Source of the DNA: a virus | Taxonomy: Duplodnaviria > Caudoviricetes | Length of the DNA stretch: 39,733 nucleotides | Direction: 5' to 3' (one strand) | Virus record (IMG/VR): IMGVR_UViG_3300043174_000063 | Location: 1-39,733 of that record | In this document: one piece after another, positions 20,936-39,733 of the stretch | Position numbering within the stretch: position 1 is the stretch's first letter | Layout: each line of letters starts with the position of its first letter | Program-made: the position numbers and the translations under genes | Notes under the pieces: model-generated | Database searches by the model: none | Told to the model about the DNA's origin: nothing | What the model saw: the letters and a program-made list of their open reading frames with translations, nothing else

Positions 20936-21784
20936 ATGATGGCCGGCAACACCTACAAACTCTCGGGCGGCGGCGCAACCGGGAAGTCGCAGGAATGGAC
21001 CTCGGGAGCGTCGAATAACTGGACCGCGCCGTCCAATCTCTACACCCCGTGGGTGCTGGTCGAGATGATCGGCGGCGGTGGTGGAGGGGGAGGATCCGAC
21101 ACCTCCGGCTTCGGCGCGGGCGGCGGAGGCGGCGCACAGAGGATCCTGACCTGGATGAAAGTCGTCGCCGGGGGCAGTTACACCGTGGCCGTCGGATCCG
21201 GCGGCACCGGGGGGACAGCCGGCGCGAACGACGGAAACGATGGCGGCGACTCGACGGTCACCTACTCAAGCACCGTGATACTCCGCTGCCGCGGCGGCAA
21301 GAAGGGGCAGCGCGGCGTAAGCGGCTACGGGGACGGCGGGGCCGGCGGCGGGCGCTACGGGGGAGCCGGAGGCGCGGGCGGGGCAACCGGACAAGGCGGG
21401 AGCGGGGACTCGCCTGGGAGCCTGAGCGGAACCTCCAACTGGGAGGATCCGGCCGGGTGCTGCGGATGGGGGGGCGGCGGTGGCGGAGGCGACGACGTCA
21501 ACGGGGACGCCGGCGACTCTGGGCGCTACTACTTCAGCCATCTCGATGACCCCGGGAACGGCGGACAGGCCACCGGGACTGATCCGTATTTCGGAGGCGG
21601 AGGTGGCGGCGGGGGAACGTTCCTCGGAACGGGCGGCGACGGCGGCAACGGAGATGCTGCCGGTGAAACGGCAACGCAAGGCTACGGCGGCGGCGGCGGC
21701 GGCGCAGGCGGCGGCAACGCGGCCGGCCGCGCTGGCGGCGCAGGCGCGAATGGGATAGTCCGTTTCTATTGGCTGGAGAATTAA
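20936..21784 (+). CDS. Glycine-rich tail/adhesin-like protein 1
   Basis: SQEWTSG...WTAP...VLVEMIGGGGGGG ... GGAGANGIVRFYW. Confidence 0.8.
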   Translation: MMAGNTYKLSGGGATGKSQEWTSGASNNWTAPSNLYTPWVLVEMIGGGGGGGGSDTSGFGAGGGGGAQRILTWMKVVAGGSYTVAVGSGGTGGTAGANDGNDGGDSTVTYSSTVILRCRGGKKGQRGVSGYGDGGAGGGRYGGAGGAGGATGQGGSGDSPGSLSGTSNWEDPAGCCGWGGGGGGGDDVNGDAGDSGRYYFSHLDDPGNGGQATGTDPYFGGGGGGGGTFLGTGGDGGNGDAAGETATQGYGGGGGGAGGGNAAGRAGGAGANGIVRFYWLEN

Positions 21785-21785
21785 A

Positions 21786-22520
21786 ATGGCCGGAACCACA
21801 TTCAAACTCGGGCTCGCCGGCGGCGCTTGGAAGTGCCAGGAATTCACGACGCAAGGAGCCGGCACCTTCACGGCTCCGCTCGGCCCGACGCCGGTCAGCT
21901 TCGTGCTGGTCGAGCTGAAAGGCGGTGGCGGCGGCGGCGGTGGATCGCGCAGCAGCTACAACCACGGGGGAGGCGGAGGCGGAGGCGGCGAATATGCCTG
22001 GTATATGGTGCCGGTTACTCCTGGCACCGGCTACTCGCTCTACGTCGGCAACGGCGGCACGGCCGGCACCGGCAGCAGCTCCCCCACCGCCGGCGGCAAC
22101 GGCGAGGCTTCCTACTGGGTCTCCTCGGCTACGTTCCGCGCAGTCGGCGGGGTCGGAGGGGCGGTTGCCGGAACGGTCTCCGGAGGATCCGGCGGCAACG
22201 GAGGAGGATATTCCGGCCCGCGCACGTACAGCGAAGACGGGGCAGACGGAGGATCGGGGGCGACAGGAGCGGCGGCCGGATCGGCAGGGCAGGACGGGCT
22301 CTGTATAGACGGCGCGGCCGGCGGTTCAATAGCAACCTACGGCGGGGGAGGCGGCGGCGGAAGCTGCTACGACGCGCGCGGGGGCGCGGGCGGGAACGGA
22401 GGCGCTGCCGGCACGGCAGCCGCGGCCAACAGCGGCGCGGGCGGAGGCGGCGGCGGCGGCAACGGATTCAACGGAGGCGGAGGCGGCACGGGGATCGTGC
22501 GAGTCTGGTATCTCGGGTAA
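21786..22520 (+). CDS. Glycine-rich tail/adhesin-like protein 2
   Basis: QEFTTQGAGTFTAP...VLVELKGGGGGGG ... GGGGGTGIVRVWY. Confidence 0.8.
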   Translation: MAGTTFKLGLAGGAWKCQEFTTQGAGTFTAPLGPTPVSFVLVELKGGGGGGGGSRSSYNHGGGGGGGGEYAWYMVPVTPGTGYSLYVGNGGTAGTGSSSPTAGGNGEASYWVSSATFRAVGGVGGAVAGTVSGGSGGNGGGYSGPRTYSEDGADGGSGATGAAAGSAGQDGLCIDGAAGGSIATYGGGGGGGSCYDARGGAGGNGGAAGTAAAANSGAGGGGGGGNGFNGGGGGTGIVRVWYLG

Positions 22521-22529
22521 GGAGCGCCG

Positions 22530-25500
22530 ATGGCTGACAAGCTGACGAAAATCTCGGCCGATCTGCTCCAAGACATAATCGCTCATATGGGTGGAGGATC
22601 GCCCACCACGTTCCTCGGTCTGACCGACACTCCGAGCAGCTACGCCGGCGCGGGCGGCTATTATGTCAAGGTCAACAGTGGGGCGACGGGCCTGGAGTTC
22701 TCGGCGGCCGGCGGCAGCACGACGTTCGTATCGTTGACGGATACTCCGAGCAGCTATACGGCCGCGGCCTACAAGATGCTGCGCGTCAATACGGGGCAGA
22801 CGGGCGTCGAGTTTGCCACGCTCCAGGGAACAACCAATCAGGTCACCGTCACTCACGCCGCGGATCTGATCACCCTCTCGCTGCCGCAGAATATCCACAC
22901 GTCGGCGTCTCCGACATTCGCGAACGTCTTCGCGAGGCTCTACCGCTCTGTCGACTCCGACTGGAACGACCTCGTCGAAGGCCGAGTCTATTCGGCGACG
23001 GCGTCGCATTATCCGTACATCCTGCTGCGGCGGGCGCGGGGGACAGAGGCTTCGCCTGCCGATATTCAGGCGAGCGACTACGTGGGGTGCTTCAGTGGGC
23101 AGGGGAGAGTCAACGGGGCGTGGCAGTATGTCGGATCCGCCTCGTGGCGGGCGCTTTCAGTCGGCACAACATACCCGTCTGGATTCTTTGCGATTGCTCC
23201 GGCACGAAGCTCTGATGGGGCGACAACCGAAGTCCTCCGTGCTTATTATGAATACGTGACCGTCGACGGGAACTTCGGCATCGGGCAAGCGACATTCGGC
23301 ACGAGCGCCACAAAGACGCTCGCTATCGGATCCGGCGCAGCGCCGGAAACTTCGCCGGTTGATGCGATCCAGCTCTACTCCTCTGACTTCGCAGCCGGCA
23401 ACGCCTGCCCGACGTTCCGCACGGAGAACGGAACAGTCATTCAGTTGAATCAGAACCTCACGACGTACGCTTCGCCGACGTTCATCGCGCTCACGCTGAA
23501 CGGGAAGCTCTCGGCGGCGGCGGTCACCGGGACTACGGCAGAATACACAGACAGTCATCGGCTGGACTTTACTCTTACCGCCTCGTCTATCTCGGCCTCG
23601 GTCCAAGTCCCTTGTATGTGGCTCAATTACGTCTGGGCGAATCAGGCAGTCAGCGTCAGCGGCGGCGTGACGTACTCCCCCTCGTACTTTCACGGGCGGC
23701 AAGACGTCTACTCACAAATCTCGAACAGTGGGACGATTGACGCTGCCGGCTTCCGCTCGGAGCTTTATCTTCAGGCGGCCTCGACGGGCGTGATCACGAG
23801 CTTCACGGACTTCTATGCTCACGGCCCCGACTACAAGCACGCCTCGTCGACGGCAACAATCACGGACTGGGCGGGGTTGAGGGTCGCGAACCCAGCGGCT
23901 AACATCCTCACAAACGCCTACGGCATCTATGTCGGGAACATCACGGCCGGATCGAGCGTCAATTATTCAATCTACGTCTCCGGAGGAACGAGTTATTTCG
24001 GAGGCGTGGTGCGCTGCTCTTCCTATCTTGAGGTCGCCGAGATCGCAGCGCCCGGGACGCCGGGATCCGGCTATGGGCGCATCTACGGGGCATCGGACGG
24101 CAAGGTCTACTACGTAAACGACGCGGGCACGACCTACGATCTGACCTCTACGGGCGGCAGCGCGCACGCAATTCTCTCCTCCACGCACAGCGACACGCTG
24201 ACCGCTACCGTCGTGCGCGGCGACATCATCGTCGGGAATTCGACGCCGGCCTGGGCGCGGCTTGCCATCGGCTCAAACGGATACTTCTTGAAGTCGAACG
24301 GGACGGATGCCGCGTGGGCAGCGCACGGCCTCACGTACACGGACGTGGGCGCGCCTCCAGACACGCGCAGCATCTCGACTACCGCTCCACTCAGCGGCGG
24401 CGGCAACCTCACGGCCGACAGGACGTTGACGCTGGCCGGCCTCTCGTCGCTCGGGACGGCGAACTATCTGGTCGGGGTCAACAGCGGCGCGACGGGGTGG
24501 GAGTACAAACAGCTGATCCAAACGGCGAACCGGGTCACCGTATCCCACGGGGCCGGGGCGATCACGCTTTCCGGCCCGCAGGACATCCACACGGCGGCCA
24601 CCCCACAGTTCGCCCGGGTCGGCCTCGGGGTAGCTGCGAGCGACTCGAAGGGGCTCGCGCTGACCGGGACCGTGGATCCGGCGACGGACGCCACGTGCTA
24701 CGGAATCCAGGTTTATTCGCTCTCGCTGACCCCCGGCACCTCCTATGATGCGTACTTCGGATCGTTTGCCGGGACGGTCGTGGCCGGCGTGGGCGAGACC
24801 ATCGGATCAGCGTACGGGATCGCGCAGAGCGGAATGACGAAGTCTGGCTCCGGCACAATCACGACGGCCTACGGGATCTACTCGTCCTCTCCTGCGCTCG
24901 CCACGACGAATTGGAACTTCTACGCAAGCGGCGCGGCCGGCAGCTATTTCGGAGGCTTCGTGCGCCACGCCTCCTACCTCGAGGTCGCGGAGATCGCAGC
25001 GCCGGGTACACCAGGATCCGGCTACGGCCGGCTCTATGGCGCATCCGACGGGAAGATCTATTACGTCAACGACGGGGGGACGTCCTTTGATCTGACGCTG
25101 GGCGGCGGCGCAGTCGGGGCGCACAACTTCCTCGACTCCACGGTGCACAACAACACGCTCACCGGCACGCCGACGCGCGGCGACATCATCTACGCAAACT
25201 CGACGCCGGCCTGGGCGAAGCTCGGCAAGGGCACGGACGGCTATTTCCTGAAGTCCAATTCTACGGATGTCGTCTGGGCGGCGCACGGATTGACCGCCTC
25301 CGACGTGGGCGCGGTGCCGACGAGCCGGACGATCTCGACCACAACCCCGCTCGCGGGCGGCGGCGACTTGACGACGAACCGTACGCTCACCGTCGGCGGC
25401 CTGAGCGCTTGGGGATCTGCGAACCAGCTGGTCGGGATGAACAACGCGGCCGGCGCGTGGGAGTACAAGACGATCCAGGGGACGACGGATCAGGTGGCCG

Positions 25501-27203
25501 TCGCCCACGCGGCGAACCTGATCACGCTCTCGACCCCGCAGAACATCGCCACGACCAGCGCGCCGCAGTTTGCGCGGATCGGCCTGGGCGTCGCATCGAG
25601 CACGGCGTATCAGCTTTATCAGGCCGGGACGCTGACGGGATCGGCCAATTACCGTGGCATATATCAGAACCAGACGTTCACGCTCAGCGCGGCCGGGACG
25701 TACGTAGACGGCGTTTATATCGGCTTCACGGTCGACACGACAGTGAACAATTACTCGCTCGGCGGCGCTTACGGCCTGCGCGTCGGGGCGCTCTCGAAGT
25801 CGGGGAGCGGGACGATCACAGACGCCTACGGCCTGCACGTCACGGCACCGACCATCGGATCGAGCAACAACTATGGGATCTACACGACCGGCCTGTTCTG
25901 GGTGCAGGACGGGGTTATTTCGGGCGGCGGCACGACGTATATCTACTGCCCGACTTATACGATGTTCCCCTACCAGACGACGCCGACAACCCCGGCGACG
26001 GGCGTTAAGGTCTACTCGAAGAGCGACGGCCTCGTCTACTATCTCAACACGGGCGGCGTCGAGCGGGCATTCGCTATGGCGGCGCGGAGCATCTCGACGA
26101 CGTCGCCTCTGTCGGGCGGCGGCGATCTGAGCGCCGACAGGACGATCTCGCTGGCCGGCTTGACCGGCCTCGGATCGGCCAATCAGTTGCTCGGGATGAA
26201 CAACGGCGCTACGGCCTACGAGTACAAATCGCTGAACGGGACGACGAACCAAGTCACGGTCACGCACGCGACGAATAGCATAACGCTCTCTTTGCCGCAG
26301 AGCATCCACACAGGCGCGAGCCCGCAGTTTACGAACGAAACCCTGACCGGCTATCTCGACATCGCCGAGCAAACTGCGCCGGCGACCCCGGGCAGCGGCT
26401 ACGGGCGGCTCTACTTCAAGACGGACGGATACTTCTACGCGAAGAACGACGCCGGCACAGAGTCGCAGATCACCGGCGTATCGGCCGGCGGCGGCAAGCT
26501 CAAGTCGCAGGCATTCACCTCCGACGGAACCTGGACGCAGCCGTCCGGCGTCACGCTGGTCTGGGTCACGGCCGTGGGCGGAGGCGGCGGCGGCGAGGCC
26601 GGTATCACCTCGACGCGCGGCGGAGGCGGAGGCGGAGGCGGCGCTTTCTACTACCGCTTCCCGGTGACGGTCTCGGGGAACGTCTCGGTCACAATCGGCA
26701 CGGCCGGGACGGCCGGCAGCGGATCCTCGGGCGCGAACGGAGGCTCGGGCGGCAGCACTACCTTCGGCAGCTATCTCACGGCGCACGGCGGCATCGGCGG
26801 CGGCGTGGCCGGATCCGGCTACGGAGGCGCAGGCGGCGGCGAGGTCGGATTCGGGGCGACCCAGACGACGGCCGGCAGCGCCGGAAACTCGCCGACCATC
26901 CGCGGATCTTTCTACATCCCCGGTGCAGGCGGCGGCGCAGGCACGACGACCTCTCCCACAAGCGGAGGCGCGGGCGCGTACCAGGTGCGCTACGGCGGCG
27001 GCTCGGGCGGCGCGTCAACCTATGGCGGCGGCGGCGGCGCGGGCGCTATGGGGACGGGCGGCACGGGCGGCACCTCCGGAGTTGCCGGCACTGCCGGATC
27101 CGCAAACACCGGGGCCGGCGGCGGCGGGGGATGGGGAGGCGCGACGTATACGGCAGGCGGCGCGGGCGGCACCGGCTGGCTGCTCGTCGAGTGGGTCGAA
27201 TAG
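22530..27203 (+). CDS. Long tail fibre with internal duplications and C-terminal glycine-rich domain
   Basis: 1557 aa, Thr/Gly/Ser-rich, repeated modules; ends SQAFTSDGTWTQPSGVT.V.V..VGGGGGG...GGTGWLLVEW. Confidence 0.88.
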   Translation: MADKLTKISADLLQDIIAHMGGGSPTTFLGLTDTPSSYAGAGGYYVKVNSGATGLEFSAAGGSTTFVSLTDTPSSYTAAAYKMLRVNTGQTGVEFATLQGTTNQVTVTHAADLITLSLPQNIHTSASPTFANVFARLYRSVDSDWNDLVEGRVYSATASHYPYILLRRARGTEASPADIQASDYVGCFSGQGRVNGAWQYVGSASWRALSVGTTYPSGFFAIAPARSSDGATTEVLRAYYEYVTVDGNFGIGQATFGTSATKTLAIGSGAAPETSPVDAIQLYSSDFAAGNACPTFRTENGTVIQLNQNLTTYASPTFIALTLNGKLSAAAVTGTTAEYTDSHRLDFTLTASSISASVQVPCMWLNYVWANQAVSVSGGVTYSPSYFHGRQDVYSQISNSGTIDAAGFRSELYLQAASTGVITSFTDFYAHGPDYKHASSTATITDWAGLRVANPAANILTNAYGIYVGNITAGSSVNYSIYVSGGTSYFGGVVRCSSYLEVAEIAAPGTPGSGYGRIYGASDGKVYYVNDAGTTYDLTSTGGSAHAILSSTHSDTLTATVVRGDIIVGNSTPAWARLAIGSNGYFLKSNGTDAAWAAHGLTYTDVGAPPDTRSISTTAPLSGGGNLTADRTLTLAGLSSLGTANYLVGVNSGATGWEYKQLIQTANRVTVSHGAGAITLSGPQDIHTAATPQFARVGLGVAASDSKGLALTGTVDPATDATCYGIQVYSLSLTPGTSYDAYFGSFAGTVVAGVGETIGSAYGIAQSGMTKSGSGTITTAYGIYSSSPALATTNWNFYASGAAGSYFGGFVRHASYLEVAEIAAPGTPGSGYGRLYGASDGKIYYVNDGGTSFDLTLGGGAVGAHNFLDSTVHNNTLTGTPTRGDIIYANSTPAWAKLGKGTDGYFLKSNSTDVVWAAHGLTASDVGAVPTSRTISTTTPLAGGGDLTTNRTLTVGGLSAWGSANQLVGMNNAAGAWEYKTIQGTTDQVAVAHAANLITLSTPQNIATTSAPQFARIGLGVASSTAYQLYQAGTLTGSANYRGIYQNQTFTLSAAGTYVDGVYIGFTVDTTVNNYSLGGAYGLRVGALSKSGSGTITDAYGLHVTAPTIGSSNNYGIYTTGLFWVQDGVISGGGTTYIYCPTYTMFPYQTTPTTPATGVKVYSKSDGLVYYLNTGGVERAFAMAARSISTTSPLSGGGDLSADRTISLAGLTGLGSANQLLGMNNGATAYEYKSLNGTTNQVTVTHATNSITLSLPQSIHTGASPQFTNETLTGYLDIAEQTAPATPGSGYGRLYFKTDGYFYAKNDAGTESQITGVSAGGGKLKSQAFTSDGTWTQPSGVTLVWVTAVGGGGGGEAGITSTRGGGGGGGGAFYYRFPVTVSGNVSVTIGTAGTAGSGSSGANGGSGGSTTFGSYLTAHGGIGGGVAGSGYGGAGGGEVGFGATQTTAGSAGNSPTIRGSFYIPGAGGGAGTTTSPTSGGAGAYQVRYGGGSGGASTYGGGGGAGAMGTGGTGGTSGVAGTAGSANTGAGGGGGWGGATYTAGGAGGTGWLLVEWVE

Positions 27204-27205
27204 AG

Positions 27206-27946
27206 ATGGCGGTCACGAAGTCACAGAAGTTCACATCGGGCGGCACGTGGACCTGCCCGTCTGGCGTGACGATGGTTTGGGTAACGCTGATCGGCGGTGG
27301 AGGCGGCGGGGCCGGAAGCGACGGAGCCAGTTTGACCGGTGGGGGAGGGGGAGGCTGCGGCGAGCTGATCTTCCGTAAACCGGTTGTCGTATCGGCCAAC
27401 GTCTCGGTCACGGTCGGGCAGGGCGGCGACGGAGGCTACGGCACGCAGGACGGGACCGCCGGCACGTCTTCCTCTTTCGGATCGCTGAGCGCCTCGGGCG
27501 GGGGGGGAGGCGGCTCATCTACTGGGCAGGGCGGCAGCGGCGGAGCCACAAACAACTACGTAGGCTCGGCAGGCTCGGGCGGCTCACAAGAGCAGATGGG
27601 CGAGTCGCCCTCGGAAAGGTGGATGATGGAATACCTGCCAGGGTCAGGCGGCGGGGGAGGATCCGCGCCGAACGGCACTGGCGGCCGCGGAGGGTACCAG
27701 GGCCGCTACAACGGCGGAGCCGGCGGCTCGGCCGGAGGAGCCGATTATTGTGGCGGCGGCGGGGGTGCTTCATCGTTCTTCGGGGCCGGGGGAGCCGGAG
27801 GCAGTGGATCCTCCGGCGGCAGCAACGCATCGCCCTACACCGGGGCCGGCGGGGGGGGAGCCGGATGTATGGTGGGCGACCCGGTAATCGACCGAAACGG
27901 CGGGTACGGGGCCGACGGTTTCGTGCTTGTCGAATGGATCGAATAG
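27206..27946 (+). CDS. Glycine-rich tail/adhesin-like protein 3
   Basis: SQKFTSGGTWTCPSGVTMVWVTLIGGGGGG ... GGYGADGFVLVEW. Confidence 0.8.
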   Translation: MAVTKSQKFTSGGTWTCPSGVTMVWVTLIGGGGGGAGSDGASLTGGGGGGCGELIFRKPVVVSANVSVTVGQGGDGGYGTQDGTAGTSSSFGSLSASGGGGGGSSTGQGGSGGATNNYVGSAGSGGSQEQMGESPSERWMMEYLPGSGGGGGSAPNGTGGRGGYQGRYNGGAGGSAGGADYCGGGGGASSFFGAGGAGGSGSSGGSNASPYTGAGGGGAGCMVGDPVIDRNGGYGADGFVLVEWIE

Positions 27947-32628: not shown

Positions 32629-33277
32629 GCAGCTTCAGGAGAAGCTACGCGCCCACGGCCCGTACTTCAACAAGGCCGGCCTCGAGGTCGTCTCTTTGAC
32701 GACCTTTCTCGACGTCCTATCGCGCCCGAAGCTGATCCGGTGGGCGCACGATCTCGGGCGGGCCGGCATCGACTACGACGCCTATATGTCAGACCTCGGG
32801 GACGTCGGCACGCTTGCGCACCGCCTCTGCCTTCAAGATCTGCGCGGCGTGCCGGCTCCCTACGACGAGTACTCGAAGAACGTCCGTGATCGGGCCGAGA
32901 CCTGCTTCATCAAATTCCTCGACTGGAAGAAGCGCCATCACCTGGAGCCGCTTTCAGTCGAGAAGCCGATCCTCAGCGAGCAGTATCAGTACGGGTGCAC
33001 GCCCGACTTCTACGGCCGCATCGACGGCCGGCTGAACGTAATGGAGATCAAGACCGGGTCGGCGATCTACGACGACACCTGGGAGCAGGTCGCCGGCCAG
33101 CGGCTCGCGCTGATCGAGCTGGGCGTGCCGGTCGAAGAAGCGAGGATCCTCAGAATCAGCCGGCTCCCCGAGGAGGGCTTCGAGGAGGCCGTGCGCCAGG
33201 ATCCACTTCACTCCGAGGAGATTATCGTCATCTCGGCGCGCCGGATCTGGGAGGAGCGATTCCGGAGGCCTGCGTGA
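32612..33277 (+). CDS. PD-(D/E)XK exonuclease (phage recombination type)
   Basis: S.TT.L..L..P.L..WA, GT..H, E, YG.TPD, EIKTG..IY....Q motifs. Confidence 0.8.
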   Translation: MARAAEQLQEKLRAHGPYFNKAGLEVVSLTTFLDVLSRPKLIRWAHDLGRAGIDYDAYMSDLGDVGTLAHRLCLQDLRGVPAPYDEYSKNVRDRAETCFIKFLDWKKRHHLEPLSVEKPILSEQYQYGCTPDFYGRIDGRLNVMEIKTGSAIYDDTWEQVAGQRLALIELGVPVEEARILRISRLPEEGFEEAVRQDPLHSEEIIVISARRIWEERFRRPA

Positions 33278-33495
33278 GGTTTTTCGCCTCGCCGCCCGAC
33301 ATCGCCCCACAGAGCGTGCTGAACGCCCGGGACGGCGTCTGGCAAGAGCGCAAGCGGCTCTGGATCGCCCTCGGCATCAAGTCCGAGATCGGCCGCGGCG
33401 CGGATCTTACTTACTCTGGCGAGGCGATCACCACGCAGAACCTCAACTTCTACAGGAATCGCGAGAAGCAGCGAGCGAAAAATGGCAAACGGTGA
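33274..33495 (+). CDS. 73-aa paralog of the methyltransferase N-terminal segment
   Basis: GTG overlaps the nuclease TGA; SVLNARDGVWQERKRLWIALGIKSEIGRG matches TILNAREGAWQARKDAWISLGIRSEIGRG in the next gene. Confidence 0.7.
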   Translation: MRFFASPPDIAPQSVLNARDGVWQERKRLWIALGIKSEIGRGADLTYSGEAITTQNLNFYRNREKQRAKNGKR

Positions 33496-35374
33496 ATTCT
33501 CCCCATTCGGCAAAGACCTCTTCGGAAACCCGATCCGGCCGCAGTGCTCCGGCACGATGGCCGAGCGATTTATGGTGCCACCTTTCACGATCCTCAACGC
33601 CCGCGAGGGAGCTTGGCAGGCGCGCAAAGACGCTTGGATCTCCCTCGGCATCCGCTCAGAGATCGGGCGAGGCGACAATCTCTTGAACTTCTCGGACACG
33701 GTGCGGCTGCCCTCGCGCAAGGCGAACGCGGCCGCCTATAAAGGACAATCAGATCTCAACGCCATAATGAACCAGCGAAAAGACCTTTACTCGGATCGCA
33801 ACACTCATCTCGCAGAAGAGGCGCGCTCCAAGCTCGGCGTCTACGAGTGCTACGACGGCTCGGGGACGCTCGAGAAAGCTGACGGCGGGCCGACCGGCAC
33901 CTCGATCTTCGACCCGGTGCTCTGCGAGCTGATGTACCGGTGGTTCTGTCCCCCGGCCGGCCACATCCTCGACCCCTTCGCCGGCGGCAGCGTCCGCGGC
34001 ATCGTCGCCCATCTTCTCGGGCGGCGCTACACGGGGATTGAGCTTCGGCCGGAACAGGTAGCCGCCAACATCGAGCAGGCGCGGCTCGTCTGCGGCGCGG
34101 CTGCGGATCCGGTGGAGCCGGAGGATAACGAGGCGGCCCCGACCCCGGTTCAGAACTTCGCCGGCATCTGGGTCAAGCGCGACGATCTCTACTCGATTGC
34201 CGGCGCGCGCGGCGGCAAGGCGCGCAGCTGCTGGGCGCTCGCCCAGAAGGCCACGAAAGGACTTGTCACGGCCGGCAGCCGCAGCTCGCCGCAGGTCAAC
34301 ATCGTCGCCCACATCGGCCGGCGGCTCGGCCTGCCCGTACGCGCGCACGTGCCGAAGGGCATCCTCTCGCCCGAGCTGATCCTCGCGCAGGAGGCCGGGG
34401 CAGAGATCATCCAGCACGACGCCGGCTACAACAGCGTCATCAAGGCGCGCGCCAGGGTGGACGCCGACGAGAGCGGCTTCACCGAGATTCCTTTCGGAAT
34501 GGAGCATCTCGAGGCGGTCGAGCTGACTGCGCTCGAGGTCATCAACATCCCCCTCGAGGTCAAGCGCCTCGTCGTGCCGGTCGGATCCGGCCTCACGCTG
34601 GCCGGCATCCTGCGCGGCCTCGCCGCGGCCGGCCGCGATCTTCCGGTGCTCGGAGTCAGCGTCGGCGCAGATCCCACGCGCATTCTTGACAAGTACGGGC
34701 CGCCGCTCTGGAGGAAAATGGTCGAGATCATCCCGGCCGGGGTCGACTACCACACGGAGGTCGACGCCTCGCTCGGGCCGATCAAACTCGACCCGATCTA
34801 CGAGGCGAAGTGCGCCGCCCACCTGCGCCCGGGCGACTGCCTCTGGATTGTCGGGATCCGGCAGTCGGCAACGGCCGGCCTCGAGGGATTGCCGCGCTAC
34901 GTGATCGGATCCTCGGCCGACGTCGAGACGCTCGCGCCCGATCAATACGACTTCATCTTCGGCTGCCCACCCTACTACGATCTCGAGGTCTACTCGGATC
35001 TCCCGGGCGAGCTTTCGGCGCTGGCAACCTACGCCGACTTCAGGCAGCAGTACCAGCAGATCATCACGGCCTGCTGCTCGCTGCTGCGGCCGGACCGTTT
35101 CGCCTGCTTCGTCGTCGGCGACATCCGCGACGAGAAAGGCTACAACCGGCTCTTCCCACAAGACACGGTGCAGGCATTCGAGATGGCCGGCCTGCGGCTC
35201 TACAACACGGCCGTGCTCGTGACCTCGGTCGGCTCGCTGCCGATCAGAACGGGCCGGCAGTTTAAGGTCAGCCGCAAGCTCGGCCGCACCCACCAATACG
35301 TCTACGTCTTTGTCAAAGGTGATCCGGCGCGCGCCACAACGGCGCTGGAGGACTTCGAAGGAGAAGGAGAATGA
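33482..35374 (+). CDS. DNA amino-methyltransferase (N6A/N4C type) with inserted fold-type II PLP-dependent domain
   Basis: Motif I LDPFAGGSVRG (33968-34000), YTGIEL, motif IV CPPY (34964-34975); insert ~34139-34860 with PTP, VKRDD, GGK, VVPVGSG.TLAG, LDPIYEAK. Confidence 0.85.
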   Translation: MANGEFSPFGKDLFGNPIRPQCSGTMAERFMVPPFTILNAREGAWQARKDAWISLGIRSEIGRGDNLLNFSDTVRLPSRKANAAAYKGQSDLNAIMNQRKDLYSDRNTHLAEEARSKLGVYECYDGSGTLEKADGGPTGTSIFDPVLCELMYRWFCPPAGHILDPFAGGSVRGIVAHLLGRRYTGIELRPEQVAANIEQARLVCGAAADPVEPEDNEAAPTPVQNFAGIWVKRDDLYSIAGARGGKARSCWALAQKATKGLVTAGSRSSPQVNIVAHIGRRLGLPVRAHVPKGILSPELILAQEAGAEIIQHDAGYNSVIKARARVDADESGFTEIPFGMEHLEAVELTALEVINIPLEVKRLVVPVGSGLTLAGILRGLAAAGRDLPVLGVSVGADPTRILDKYGPPLWRKMVEIIPAGVDYHTEVDASLGPIKLDPIYEAKCAAHLRPGDCLWIVGIRQSATAGLEGLPRYVIGSSADVETLAPDQYDFIFGCPPYYDLEVYSDLPGELSALATYADFRQQYQQIITACCSLLRPDRFACFVVGDIRDEKGYNRLFPQDTVQAFEMAGLRLYNTAVLVTSVGSLPIRTGRQFKVSRKLGRTHQYVYVFVKGDPARATTALEDFEGEGE

Positions 35375-38203: not shown

Positions 38204-39067
38204 ATGAGTGAGCGCCGGATCTTACGGGTTTTTCCGCGCCGCACTCACGCGACTCCCGAGGATCCGCTCGCGGTGATCGGAGCGCCCGGGCTCTTTATCC
38301 CCGAGTGCGACGAGATCCACGTTTCGGTCGCGTTTCAATGGGATCTTCCCGACGCCTACAAGCTCGCCGAGCATTGGCAGCGTACCGCCCGCGTGCGCAC
38401 GATCCTCGGCGGGCCGGCAACGGGGCAGCCGTCGGGGGAATTCGTCCCGGGCCGATACCTCAGGCAGGGGTTCACGATCACCTCGCGTGGCTGCCCGCAC
38501 CACTGCTGGTACTGCTCGGTCTGGAAGCGCGAGCCGCGGCTCGTGGAGCTGCCGATCCGCGACGGCCACATCGTGCAAGACGACAACCTGCTGGCCTGCT
38601 CCGAGCACCACGTGCGCGAGGTCTTCAAGATGCTGCGCCGGCAGAAGCAGGCGGCCGAGCTGCGCGCGCTCGAGGCGCGGCTTTTCACGCGCTGGGTGGC
38701 CGAGGAGCTGACGGCGACCCACTTCTACCAGGTCTTCTTCGCCTACGATAAGCCGGAGGACTACGAGCCGCTGCGGCAAGCTGCGGCGCTGATAAAAGAA
38801 TACGGGCTCGAGAGCCGATCCAAGAAATTCCGAGTCTACGTTCTCTGCGGCTACCGCGGGGACACGCTGACCGCGGCCTCGGATCGGATGTACAAGGTTC
38901 TGGCGCTGAATATGTGGCCGTTCCCCCAGCTCTATCTGGGGCCGGACGGTAAGAAGGATCCCGGGTGGCAGAAATTCCAGAAGCTCTGGGCGCGGCCGGC
39001 CGCACAGTGGCACCTCAAGCGGGCGATGACGACTGCGGAGATCCCAGAGGAGGACGACTACCGATGA
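38204..39067 (+). CDS. Radical SAM protein
   Basis: TSRGCPHHCWYC (CxxxCxxC), DDNLLA, FAYD, VYVLCGY; N-terminal D.I.VS..F.W...LGGP segment resembling a truncated B12-binding-like domain. Confidence 0.88.
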   Translation: MSERRILRVFPRRTHATPEDPLAVIGAPGLFIPECDEIHVSVAFQWDLPDAYKLAEHWQRTARVRTILGGPATGQPSGEFVPGRYLRQGFTITSRGCPHHCWYCSVWKREPRLVELPIRDGHIVQDDNLLACSEHHVREVFKMLRRQKQAAELRALEARLFTRWVAEELTATHFYQVFFAYDKPEDYEPLRQAAALIKEYGLESRSKKFRVYVLCGYRGDTLTAASDRMYKVLALNMWPFPQLYLGPDGKKDPGWQKFQKLWARPAAQWHLKRAMTTAEIPEEDDYR

Positions 39068-39083
39068 AAACGGAGGATTGACG

Positions 39084-39557
39084 ATGAAGATCTTGGCGCT
39101 TGACTGTGGGACAAAGACCGGGTGGGCAGCTGACGGCGAGAGCCGCGTCGAGAGCGGCGTGCAGACGTTTGAGCTGAAGCGCGGCGAATCGCCCGGGATG
39201 CGCTTCATCCGTTTCAACGCTTGGCTGGTCGAGGTGATCGGCCTGACGCACCCCGATCTCGTCGTCTACGAGATGGCACACCTCCGCGGCGGCGCTGCCA
39301 CGGATCTGCTCGTGGGGATGACGACGCGGGTCGCTGAGGCCTGCGCGCGGATCGGCATCGAGTGCTCGTGGCTCCACTCGGTACAGGTCAAGAAGATCGT
39401 CGCCGGCACGGGCAAGGCAACGAAGGACGATATGATCTCCGTCGCCCGCAAGCTCTTCGGCCGCGTGCCCGAGGACGACAACGAGGCCGACGCCCTCTGC
39501 CTCTGGCTCGCCGCGAAGGCTCAATGGGATCCGGCCCCGCGGAGGGCGCAGCCGTGA
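39084..39557 (+). CDS. RuvC-like Holliday junction resolvase
   Basis: ILALD.GTKTGWA, PDLVVYE, VKK...GTGKATK.DM, DDNEADAL. Confidence 0.88.
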   Translation: MKILALDCGTKTGWAADGESRVESGVQTFELKRGESPGMRFIRFNAWLVEVIGLTHPDLVVYEMAHLRGGAATDLLVGMTTRVAEACARIGIECSWLHSVQVKKIVAGTGKATKDDMISVARKLFGRVPEDDNEADALCLWLAAKAQWDPAPRRAQP

Positions 39558-39733
39558 ACTACGCCGGCCGGATCGGGCTCGTAAGATCCTACTACGCCTC
39601 GCTCCGGACGGTCGAGTACCGCTACGTGGGCGATGATCCGTCGTTTCGCCCGCTGATGGCGGCAAAGCTGCGGCAGATGATCCGCGACTACGCGCCCAGG
39701 CACGATCCAAGCACGCACGAGGAACGCAAGCTC
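39554..39733 (+). CDS. 5' part of the junction-crossing gene (continues at 179-469)
   Basis: GTG overlaps the resolvase stop; same frame as ORF 71..469. Confidence 0.6.
   Translation, partial: MNYAGRIGLVRSYYASLRTVEYRYVGDDPSFRPLMAAKLRQMIRDYAPRHDPSTHEERKL
39556..39733. repeat. Terminal direct repeat, right copy
   Basis: 177/178 identity with 1-178. Confidence 0.97.

Follow-up and report, generated by a model that had tools for sequence, protein, structure and literature searches.

A phage enzyme that nests a PLP domain in a DNA-methyltransferase-like fold, and a candidate family of aminocarboxypropyl or aminopropyl:DNA transferases

Phage DNA can carry amino-acid adducts that are trimmed after attachment. 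Phage ViI gp226 and phage M6 gp52 are pyridoxal 5'-phosphate (PLP)-binding proteins that decarboxylate serine or glycine once it is attached to thymine in DNA, an activity that requires a free alpha-amine (PMC8989533). In microcin C (PMC10491745), MccD and MccE couple transfer of the aminocarboxypropyl (acp) group with PLP-dependent decarboxylation to give an aminopropyl group. Here we describe a gene at 33482..35374 of a 39,733-nucleotide stretch (positions 1 to 39,733 of IMG/VR virus record IMGVR_UViG_3300043174_000063; the whole stretch is called the window), which encodes a single protein, the fusion protein, combining a PLP enzyme with a DNA-methyltransferase-like fold. We favor, on balance, a reading in which the acp arm of S-adenosylmethionine (SAM) is moved onto a base and then decarboxylated by the PLP domain to give aminopropyl-DNA.

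The phage gene encodes an intact PLP enzyme nested in a DNA-methyltransferase-like enzyme. Pfam matched the fusion protein to PALP (PF00291) at 63.9 bits, against a cut-off of 35, and to N6_N4_Mtase (PF01555) at 38.9 bits, against 26.7. An earlier sequence-only reading of this open reading frame (ORF) had proposed an in-frame fold-type II PLP insert between SAM-binding motif I and CPPY, with both halves intact, and every motif it named was present as placed, including GIEL, PTP, KRDD, GGK, VPVGSGLT and LDPIYEAK, with Lys246 beginning exactly at nucleotide 34217. An AlphaFold2 model (mean predicted local distance difference test, pLDDT, 86.2; predicted template modeling score, pTM, 0.70) agreed. 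Residues 215-468 of the model resemble ACC (1-aminocyclopropane-1-carboxylate) deaminase-like PLP enzymes (1j0a, Z 25.1, root-mean-square deviation 2.9 over 253 aligned residues), as Foldseek also found, and the two flanks together make up a single methyltransferase fold (TrmN 3tma, Z 18.8, deviation 2.0 over 179 aligned residues, model range 30-613). With a pTM this moderate, the mutual placement of the PLP and transferase domains is not settled by the model. The active sites are invariant or nearly so: among 106 aligned fusions, K246, which aligns with the lysine of known relatives, and S369 are conserved in all, G368 in 105 and G370 in 104.

A search with the fusion protein scored 7,997 candidates, of which 3,915 were hits, and the best 120, ranked by whole-protein score and hence biased toward fusions, all carried PF00291. 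The insert lies at the same site in 111 of these 120 and at the C-terminus in the other 9, which rules out a chimeric join or mis-assembly; the alignment used throughout comprises 106 of the 111, leaving out two near-copies and three proteins with extra segments. A public contig matches this region throughout with no difference, but since this DNA may have come from that very contig, it adds no independent support. Insertion itself is not essential: elsewhere the two parts form C-terminal or N-terminal fusions, or are encoded by neighboring genes.

The inserted domain is most similar to the phage decarboxylases. Its top PHROG was phrog_3650, which holds ViI gp226 (119 bits), followed by phrog_7093, which holds M6 gp52 (52 bits), and its profile matched the two proteins with pairwise E values of 3.5e-17 and 3.3e-13, respectively. 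The profile alignment pairs with the insert the lysine, the S-P-Q and G-Y-N loops (gp226), Tyr-Glu/Asp and a final W-x-x-G, an invariant motif that closes the insert and is common to gp52 and gp226. A further relative of the insert, in phage Montesquieu, adjoins a gene for the amino-acid:DNA transferase ADDT. The sequence-only reading had taken Tyr-Glu as a pointer to ACC deaminase, which did not hold up, since the decarboxylase gp226 has Tyr-Glu too. ACC deaminase depends on Lys51, Ser78, a Tyr, Glu295/296 and Leu322 (PMC4048297); the insert equivalents K246, S269, Y440 and E441 are invariant, and the sequence alignments stop short of the Leu322 position. No NCBIfam model scored the insert above 37 bits, and ACC deaminase and D-cysteine desulfhydrase activities were rejected on their own models (TIGR01274, 17.6 vs 392; TIGR01275, 31.6 vs 289; PRK03910, at most 20.8 vs 429-610). 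By sequence comparison, the inserted domain is not an ACC deaminase.

Fold-type II PLP enzymes usually eliminate. The acp group could accordingly be lost by elimination or deamination (2-oxobutyrate chemistry) after transfer, as would suit the nearest solved folds, ACC deaminase and D-cysteine desulfhydrase, and the retained Tyr-Glu. We consider this outcome quite improbable, since the phage homologues that share S-P-Q and Tyr-Glu are decarboxylases, and the interchange with SAM decarboxylase described below suggests loss of CO2.

The genome in the window is probably complete and circular, because it has a direct repeat of 178 bp at its ends (1-178 / 39556-39733, 177 letters identical) and a CheckV completeness of 100%. 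No ADDT was found in it, by a search that caught the M6 and ViI controls (two of five) and missed that of Montesquieu, so that a distant ADDT could escape. Nor did searches of the genome find a thymidylate synthase, a dUMP hydroxymethylase or any match to the M6 and ViI kinases. When nine modification proteins of M6, ViI and Montesquieu were compared with the genome, gp52 alone gave a convincing match, at the fusion ORF. On these comparisons the locus does not belong to the thymidine hypermodification systems built on 5-hydroxymethyldeoxyuridine (5-hmdU). Because the genome is complete and none of these functions was found, no candidate but the SAM domain is left to supply an adduct, and acp would be a plausible substrate for the PLP domain because it has the free alpha-amine that gp226 and gp52 require.

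To compare the SAM-binding loop with the genes beside it, relatives reached by a transferase-only query were pooled with loci reached through the insert, giving 273 ORFs in 113 clusters at 85% identity. The partner follows the residue at loop position 169. Among the 84 clusters with Gly169 and Arg172, 55 have the PLP domain and 29 have no partner; neither a SAM decarboxylase nor a minimal PLP enzyme occurs in any of the 84. All six Asp169 clusters, that of phage P2559S included, have a gene for a SAM decarboxylase (PF02675) next door, and a 165-residue minimal fold-type II PLP enzyme occurs in all 21 Glu169 clusters; the two remaining clusters fall outside these classes and lack a partner. An acidic residue in the glycine-rich loop, the hallmark of aminopropyltransferases that use decarboxylated SAM, is present in 27 of 113 clusters and absent from the fusion protein, which has Gly169. 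In the acidic-loop relatives the Arg172 position is taken by Lys or Phe, and in PLP-domain proteins (n=256) motif I reads GGSVR in 187 of 201 motif matches. Searches of whole contigs found SAM decarboxylase in 3 of 49 records and the PLP domain in 5 of 49, with no record containing both, whereas the minimal PLP enzyme was present in 4 of 25, exactly the four Glu-class records; no hidden partners turned up in these 49 and 25 records. In a quick tree, Asp with SAM decarboxylase arises twice, in one case inside the Glu clade and in the other among the Gly/Arg enzymes, and the complete genome L135 (G012) lies inside the acidic clade with Gly..Arg and no partner. At 80 loci from cellular genomes all transferases were Gly/Arg, 32 with a PLP enzyme and 48 without; these loci neither break nor test the acidic rule.

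Spermidine synthase offers a way to read this loop. Its Asp103 makes contact with the amine of decarboxylated SAM and is presumed to repel the carboxyl of SAM, a Thr three residues further on binds the carboxyl, D103I alone gives methyl transfer, and the primers set Asp103 after three glycines (PMC3725402). By the GxGxG register, loop position 169 would correspond to Asp103 and Arg172 would be the carboxyl contact. It is likely that the partner of each acidic relative supplies it with decarboxylated SAM as substrate, and that the fusion protein binds whole SAM. The match between loop and partner points to use of the amino-acid arm, since a decarboxylase acting on SAM or on the adduct matters only if the arm, and not the methyl group, is transferred.

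The proposed chemistry would run as follows. The transferase domain would move the acp arm of SAM onto a DNA base, and the inserted PLP domain would then decarboxylate the acp adduct, leaving a charged aminopropyl chain on the DNA. Acidic-loop relatives would reach the same product from SAM decarboxylated beforehand, and relatives without any decarboxylase would stop at acp-DNA. We infer acp transfer, the order of the steps and DNA as the target from these comparisons. The acceptor may be N4 of cytosine, a weak guess of ours from the C/S-PPY convention. More broadly, it appears somewhat probable that this phage and prophage "DNA methylase" family consists of SAM acp/aminopropyl:DNA transferases with three interchangeable routes, readable from one loop residue: a decarboxylase acting on DNA, of which the fusion protein would be the one-chain version, a pyruvoyl SAM decarboxylase, or the minimal PLP enzyme. 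Transfer of the amino-acid arm is the simplest reading because all partners in the family remove a carboxyl. Of the options that the sequence-only reading had offered, acp transfer with subsequent PLP decarboxylation is thus the one best supported, by comparative evidence, with elimination as the less favored variant.

The same product could be made in reverse order if the PLP domain decarboxylated free SAM and the transferase then used decarboxylated SAM, or used it as an orthogonal methyl donor while host SAM was drained. A SAM decarboxylase gene does take the same place in relatives, and the reverse order could apply to MccD/MccE also (PMC10491745), which counts against the step order proposed above. 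We judge it unlikely: the PLP-linked enzymes keep Gly169 and Arg172 (106 of 106), the state expected for intact SAM, and the studied homologues of the insert act on DNA adducts.

The minimal PLP family (~165 residues, for example L222:5848-6351) is a candidate PLP-dependent SAM decarboxylase with SAM as putative substrate. Its model has a pLDDT of 92 and the Foldseek hits listed are all fold-type II; it has no Pfam, PHROG or PDB sequence match and a weak profile comparison (probability 29%), and was placed by fold search alone. Beside Glu-class transferases, five loci (L253:1630-2652, L132, L179, L231 and L260) encode a PP-loop protein of 310-385 residues, weakly QueC-like and with a Cys motif, possibly a further tailoring enzyme.

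A number of observations weigh against acp transfer followed by decarboxylation. The reading is a comparative one. Among Gly/Arg viral clusters reached by transferase queries, 15 have the PLP domain and 29 of 44 have no decarboxylase nearby, the partnerless enzymes including complete genomes; likewise, 30 of 52 cellular-genome loci with at least 1.5 kb of flank have no decarboxylase nearby. No residue is fixed between Gly/Arg enzymes with and without the PLP domain (55 vs 29), the best separating candidate being Y499 (15 of 55 vs 24 of 29), a rule that the fusion protein itself breaks. Fisher values for Gly169 and Arg172 were set aside as circular, since the two residues define the classes, and the remaining Fisher values because they take no account of kinship. 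The Glu class retains Lys at the Arg172 position, its member L046 carries both the minimal and larger PLP enzymes, and the minimal enzyme is a partner without known substrate. Phage homologues of SAM decarboxylase can act on ornithine or arginine instead (PMC10407285). The covariation amounts to about three independent events, and the quick tree behind it leaves 54 of its 110 forks unresolved. By hand count, the transferase is fused or adjacent in ~65 of 80 viral loci fetched with the insert, leaving ~15 without one nearby. Eleven of these were searched whole: a close transferase lay elsewhere in three, only a distant one in three and none in five, the five being four small fragments and one 257-kb record; ADDT was found in none of the 11.

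Plain methylation would explain the partnerless Gly/Arg enzymes simply. The Gly/Arg enzymes either all methylate, or the partnerless ones leave acp on DNA. In the former case the fusion protein would be an ordinary N4-methylcytosine (m4C) or N6-methyladenine (m6A) methyltransferase, with the PLP domain a passenger or acting on another substrate, as would fit the PF01555 score over cut-off, the ordinary m4C/m6A DNA methyltransferases that are the closest solved sequences to the flanks, and the share of viral and cellular Gly/Arg relatives that have no decarboxylase. We hold this to be fairly unlikely. It leaves unexplained the recurrence of three decarboxylase-type partners, unrelated or distant, which are mutually exclusive and track a residue that senses the SAM carboxyl, and it leaves a DNA-adduct decarboxylase without a substrate in a genome in which no ADDT was found.

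The acceptor is a separate matter. The fusion transferase has motif I, motif IV (xPPY) and the Rossmann fold of amino (N6-A/N4-C) DNA methyltransferases. Its motif order is a circular permutation relative to the beta-class enzymes 2zie and 8s9n and runs as in Trm11 and TrmN; the beta-class (PF01555) arrangement, motif IV before motif I, is not found in it. In the AlphaFold2 model the flank fold is nearest to TrmN, Trm11 and Trm14 (Z 18.1-18.8). These best matches are tRNA N2-methylguanosine methyltransferases, and MccD alkylates a phosphate (PMC10491745), so that the same chemistry on RNA or on the DNA phosphate backbone can be envisaged. This seems highly improbable given that the sequence relatives are DNA enzymes, that homologues are fused to ParB and often terminase-adjacent (a terminase-type cluster in 40 of 113 representative loci), and that CPPY is an exocyclic-amine motif.

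The window lacks CATG, CTAG, GGCGCC, CGATCG and GAGCTC entirely by word count, against 61, 25, 45, 30 and 18 expected. Because these five restriction-like words are absent, the phage is still under restriction pressure, and the mark is likely sparse or serves packaging; it is no blanket shield, a further point against the preferred reading. CCCGGG is over-represented (42 vs 15 expected), an enrichment that is not interpretable, and a target motif deduced from word counts was rejected. The sequence-only reading had also offered removal of S-adenosylhomocysteine (SAH) or destruction of SAM as anti-restriction. Some PLP enzymes do act on SAM (PMC10491745), and these are of other families. Neither option gained support: neither would account for so close an association with a DNA enzyme, nor for the covariation of the loop, and the genome still avoids restriction-like sites. 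Both are very unlikely.

With the insert alone as query, 917 representatives at 50% identity were found, 378 of them with E values of 1e-30 or better. Fused full-length relatives occur in cultured phages (Pseudanabaena phage Pam4 gp70, Erythrobacter phages R6L gp1 and ZS04 gp7), the parts are split as neighboring genes in mycobacteriophages Vincenzo and AlanGrant (gp1-gp2) and Microcystis phage Mae-JY30, and a relative in Croceibacter phage P2559S (gp66-67) is paired with SAM decarboxylase; relatives in cultured phages are annotated merely as methylases or PLP enzymes. Prophage copies of the module occur in many phyla. The terminase-adjacent homologues often carry a ParB domain as well (PMC4738411, PMC8256090, PMC13229309). 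In Staphylococcus phage Alsa_1 (L003, 3927-6687) a stand-alone relative of the insert and an N6/N4 methyltransferase of more distant kinship are 1 kb apart, and similar pairings occur in the large phages G056 and G057. A Cys-rich DUF3109-like domain, with weak Pfam scores, is fused into the module or lies beside it in P0014, P0024, P0044, L126, L146 and L256.

The window itself is a 39.7-kb tailed phage genome of 65% GC with terminase, portal, HK97-type capsid and tail genes (Pfam and PHROG profiles). The fusion gene is situated in the replication and recombination region, flanked by an exonuclease gene and a replication-initiator gene (Table 1). A freshwater metagenome, possibly the source, was the one sequencing run with a full copy, and no RNA data set was among the runs listed. 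The short ORF that overlaps the start of the fusion gene may be a docking or regulatory piece. A radical SAM gene (phrog_9298, 38204-39067, + strand) lies 2.8 kb downstream of the fusion gene; it was rejected as a pathway member, with no match among the fetched loci and none to M6 gp53. The tail region (20936-27946, + strand) includes four tandem genes with Gly_rich_2 domains, one of 1,557 residues.

Table 1. Predicted features of the fusion gene and the ORF overlapping its start, in window coordinates
Feature	Position	Strand	Basis or remark
Fusion gene (630 aa) for a SAM-dependent transferase of N6/N4 DNA methyltransferase fold that contains the PLP insert	33482..35374	+	Pfam, PHROG, homologues
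N-terminal module, aa 20-70	33539..33691	+	Family-conserved PP..L.AR.G.WQ.RK..W..LGI.SE.GR; phrog_15396
Transferase first half, aa 136-205, motifs X, I, II	33887..34096	+	Pfam, homologue alignment
SAM-binding motif I DPFAGGSVRG, aa 164-173	33971..34000	+	Gly169, Arg172 invariant in 106/106 aligned fusions
Inserted fold-type II PLP domain, aa 217-463	34130..34870	+	Homologous to ViI gp226, M6 gp52
Lys246, predicted Schiff-base lysine	34217..34219	+	Invariant in 106/106; aligns with Lys of ACC-deaminase-like enzymes, ViI gp226, M6 gp52
Ser269-Pro-Gln substrate loop	34286..34294	+	S-P-Q common to ViI gp226; S-N-H in solved ACC-deaminase-like enzymes
PLP phosphate loop PVGSGLT, aa 366-372	34577..34597	+	Homologue alignment
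DPIYEAK, aa 437-443	34790..34810	+	Tyr440, Glu441 invariant
Transferase second half, aa 468-625, motifs III-VIII	34883..35356	+	PHROG, homologues, fold match
Catalytic motif IV CPPY, aa 495-498	34964..34975	+	Invariant in 106/106
73-aa ORF, GTG start	33274..33495	+	Overlaps exonuclease-gene stop and fusion-gene start; second, free copy of N-terminal module

The module is real, widespread and uncharacterised, a variant of phage DNA hypermodification with a likely new base. Literature searches, limited mostly to openly available papers, found none that deals with the module, nor any on phage DNA bases bearing acp or aminopropyl, and the genome announcement PMC4472886 does not mention the genes of the module. 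If the proposed chemistry is correct, acp or aminopropyl on an exocyclic amine would be a base modification that we have not found described, made by enzymes that pipelines call methylases, and the aminopropyl mark would be new for DNA. The family is large, with the 917 PLP-domain representatives noted above, and cultured phages exist. An enzyme that, from a single gene, installs a primary amine on unmodified DNA would be useful for labeling too.

Set beside the known systems, the fusion protein shares with ViI gp226 and M6 gp52 (PMC8989533) a homologous PLP domain of fold-type II in which the lysine and loops are the same, a phage DNA setting and the predicted decarboxylation of a base adduct. 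In those phages, free Ser or Gly is placed on 5-hmdU by a kinase and ADDT, whereas here neither was found and the partner is a SAM-dependent methyltransferase fold. MccD/MccE (PMC10491745) offer a precedent for the order of events proposed here, acp transfer by a methyltransferase fold followed by PLP decarboxylation, as an analogy and not as membership: their acceptor is the phosphate of a peptide-nucleotide, and MccD ranked 50th among methyltransferase folds (Z 15.0), with no special kinship. CmoX/CmoA of Synechococcus phage S-B43 (PMC12783734) likewise include a phage DNA "methyltransferase", CmoX, that transfers a larger SAM-derived group supplied by a neighboring enzyme, with a key Arg reading the carboxyl; CmoX, unlike the present protein, is a C5-cytosine enzyme that transfers carboxymethyl from the altered cofactor Cx-SAM. 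Spermidine synthase with SAM decarboxylase (PMC3725402) has the acidic loop residue that selects decarboxylated SAM, as in the Asp and Glu relatives, whereas the fusion protein has Gly at that position and the acceptor of spermidine synthase is a polyamine, not DNA. The ParB-linked phage N6/N4 methyltransferases (phrog_498, phrog_12517; PMC4738411) belong to the same family. This copy differs from them, and from the many homologues that have a ParB domain, in lacking one, in lying in the replication region and in being accompanied by an extra, free N-terminal module.

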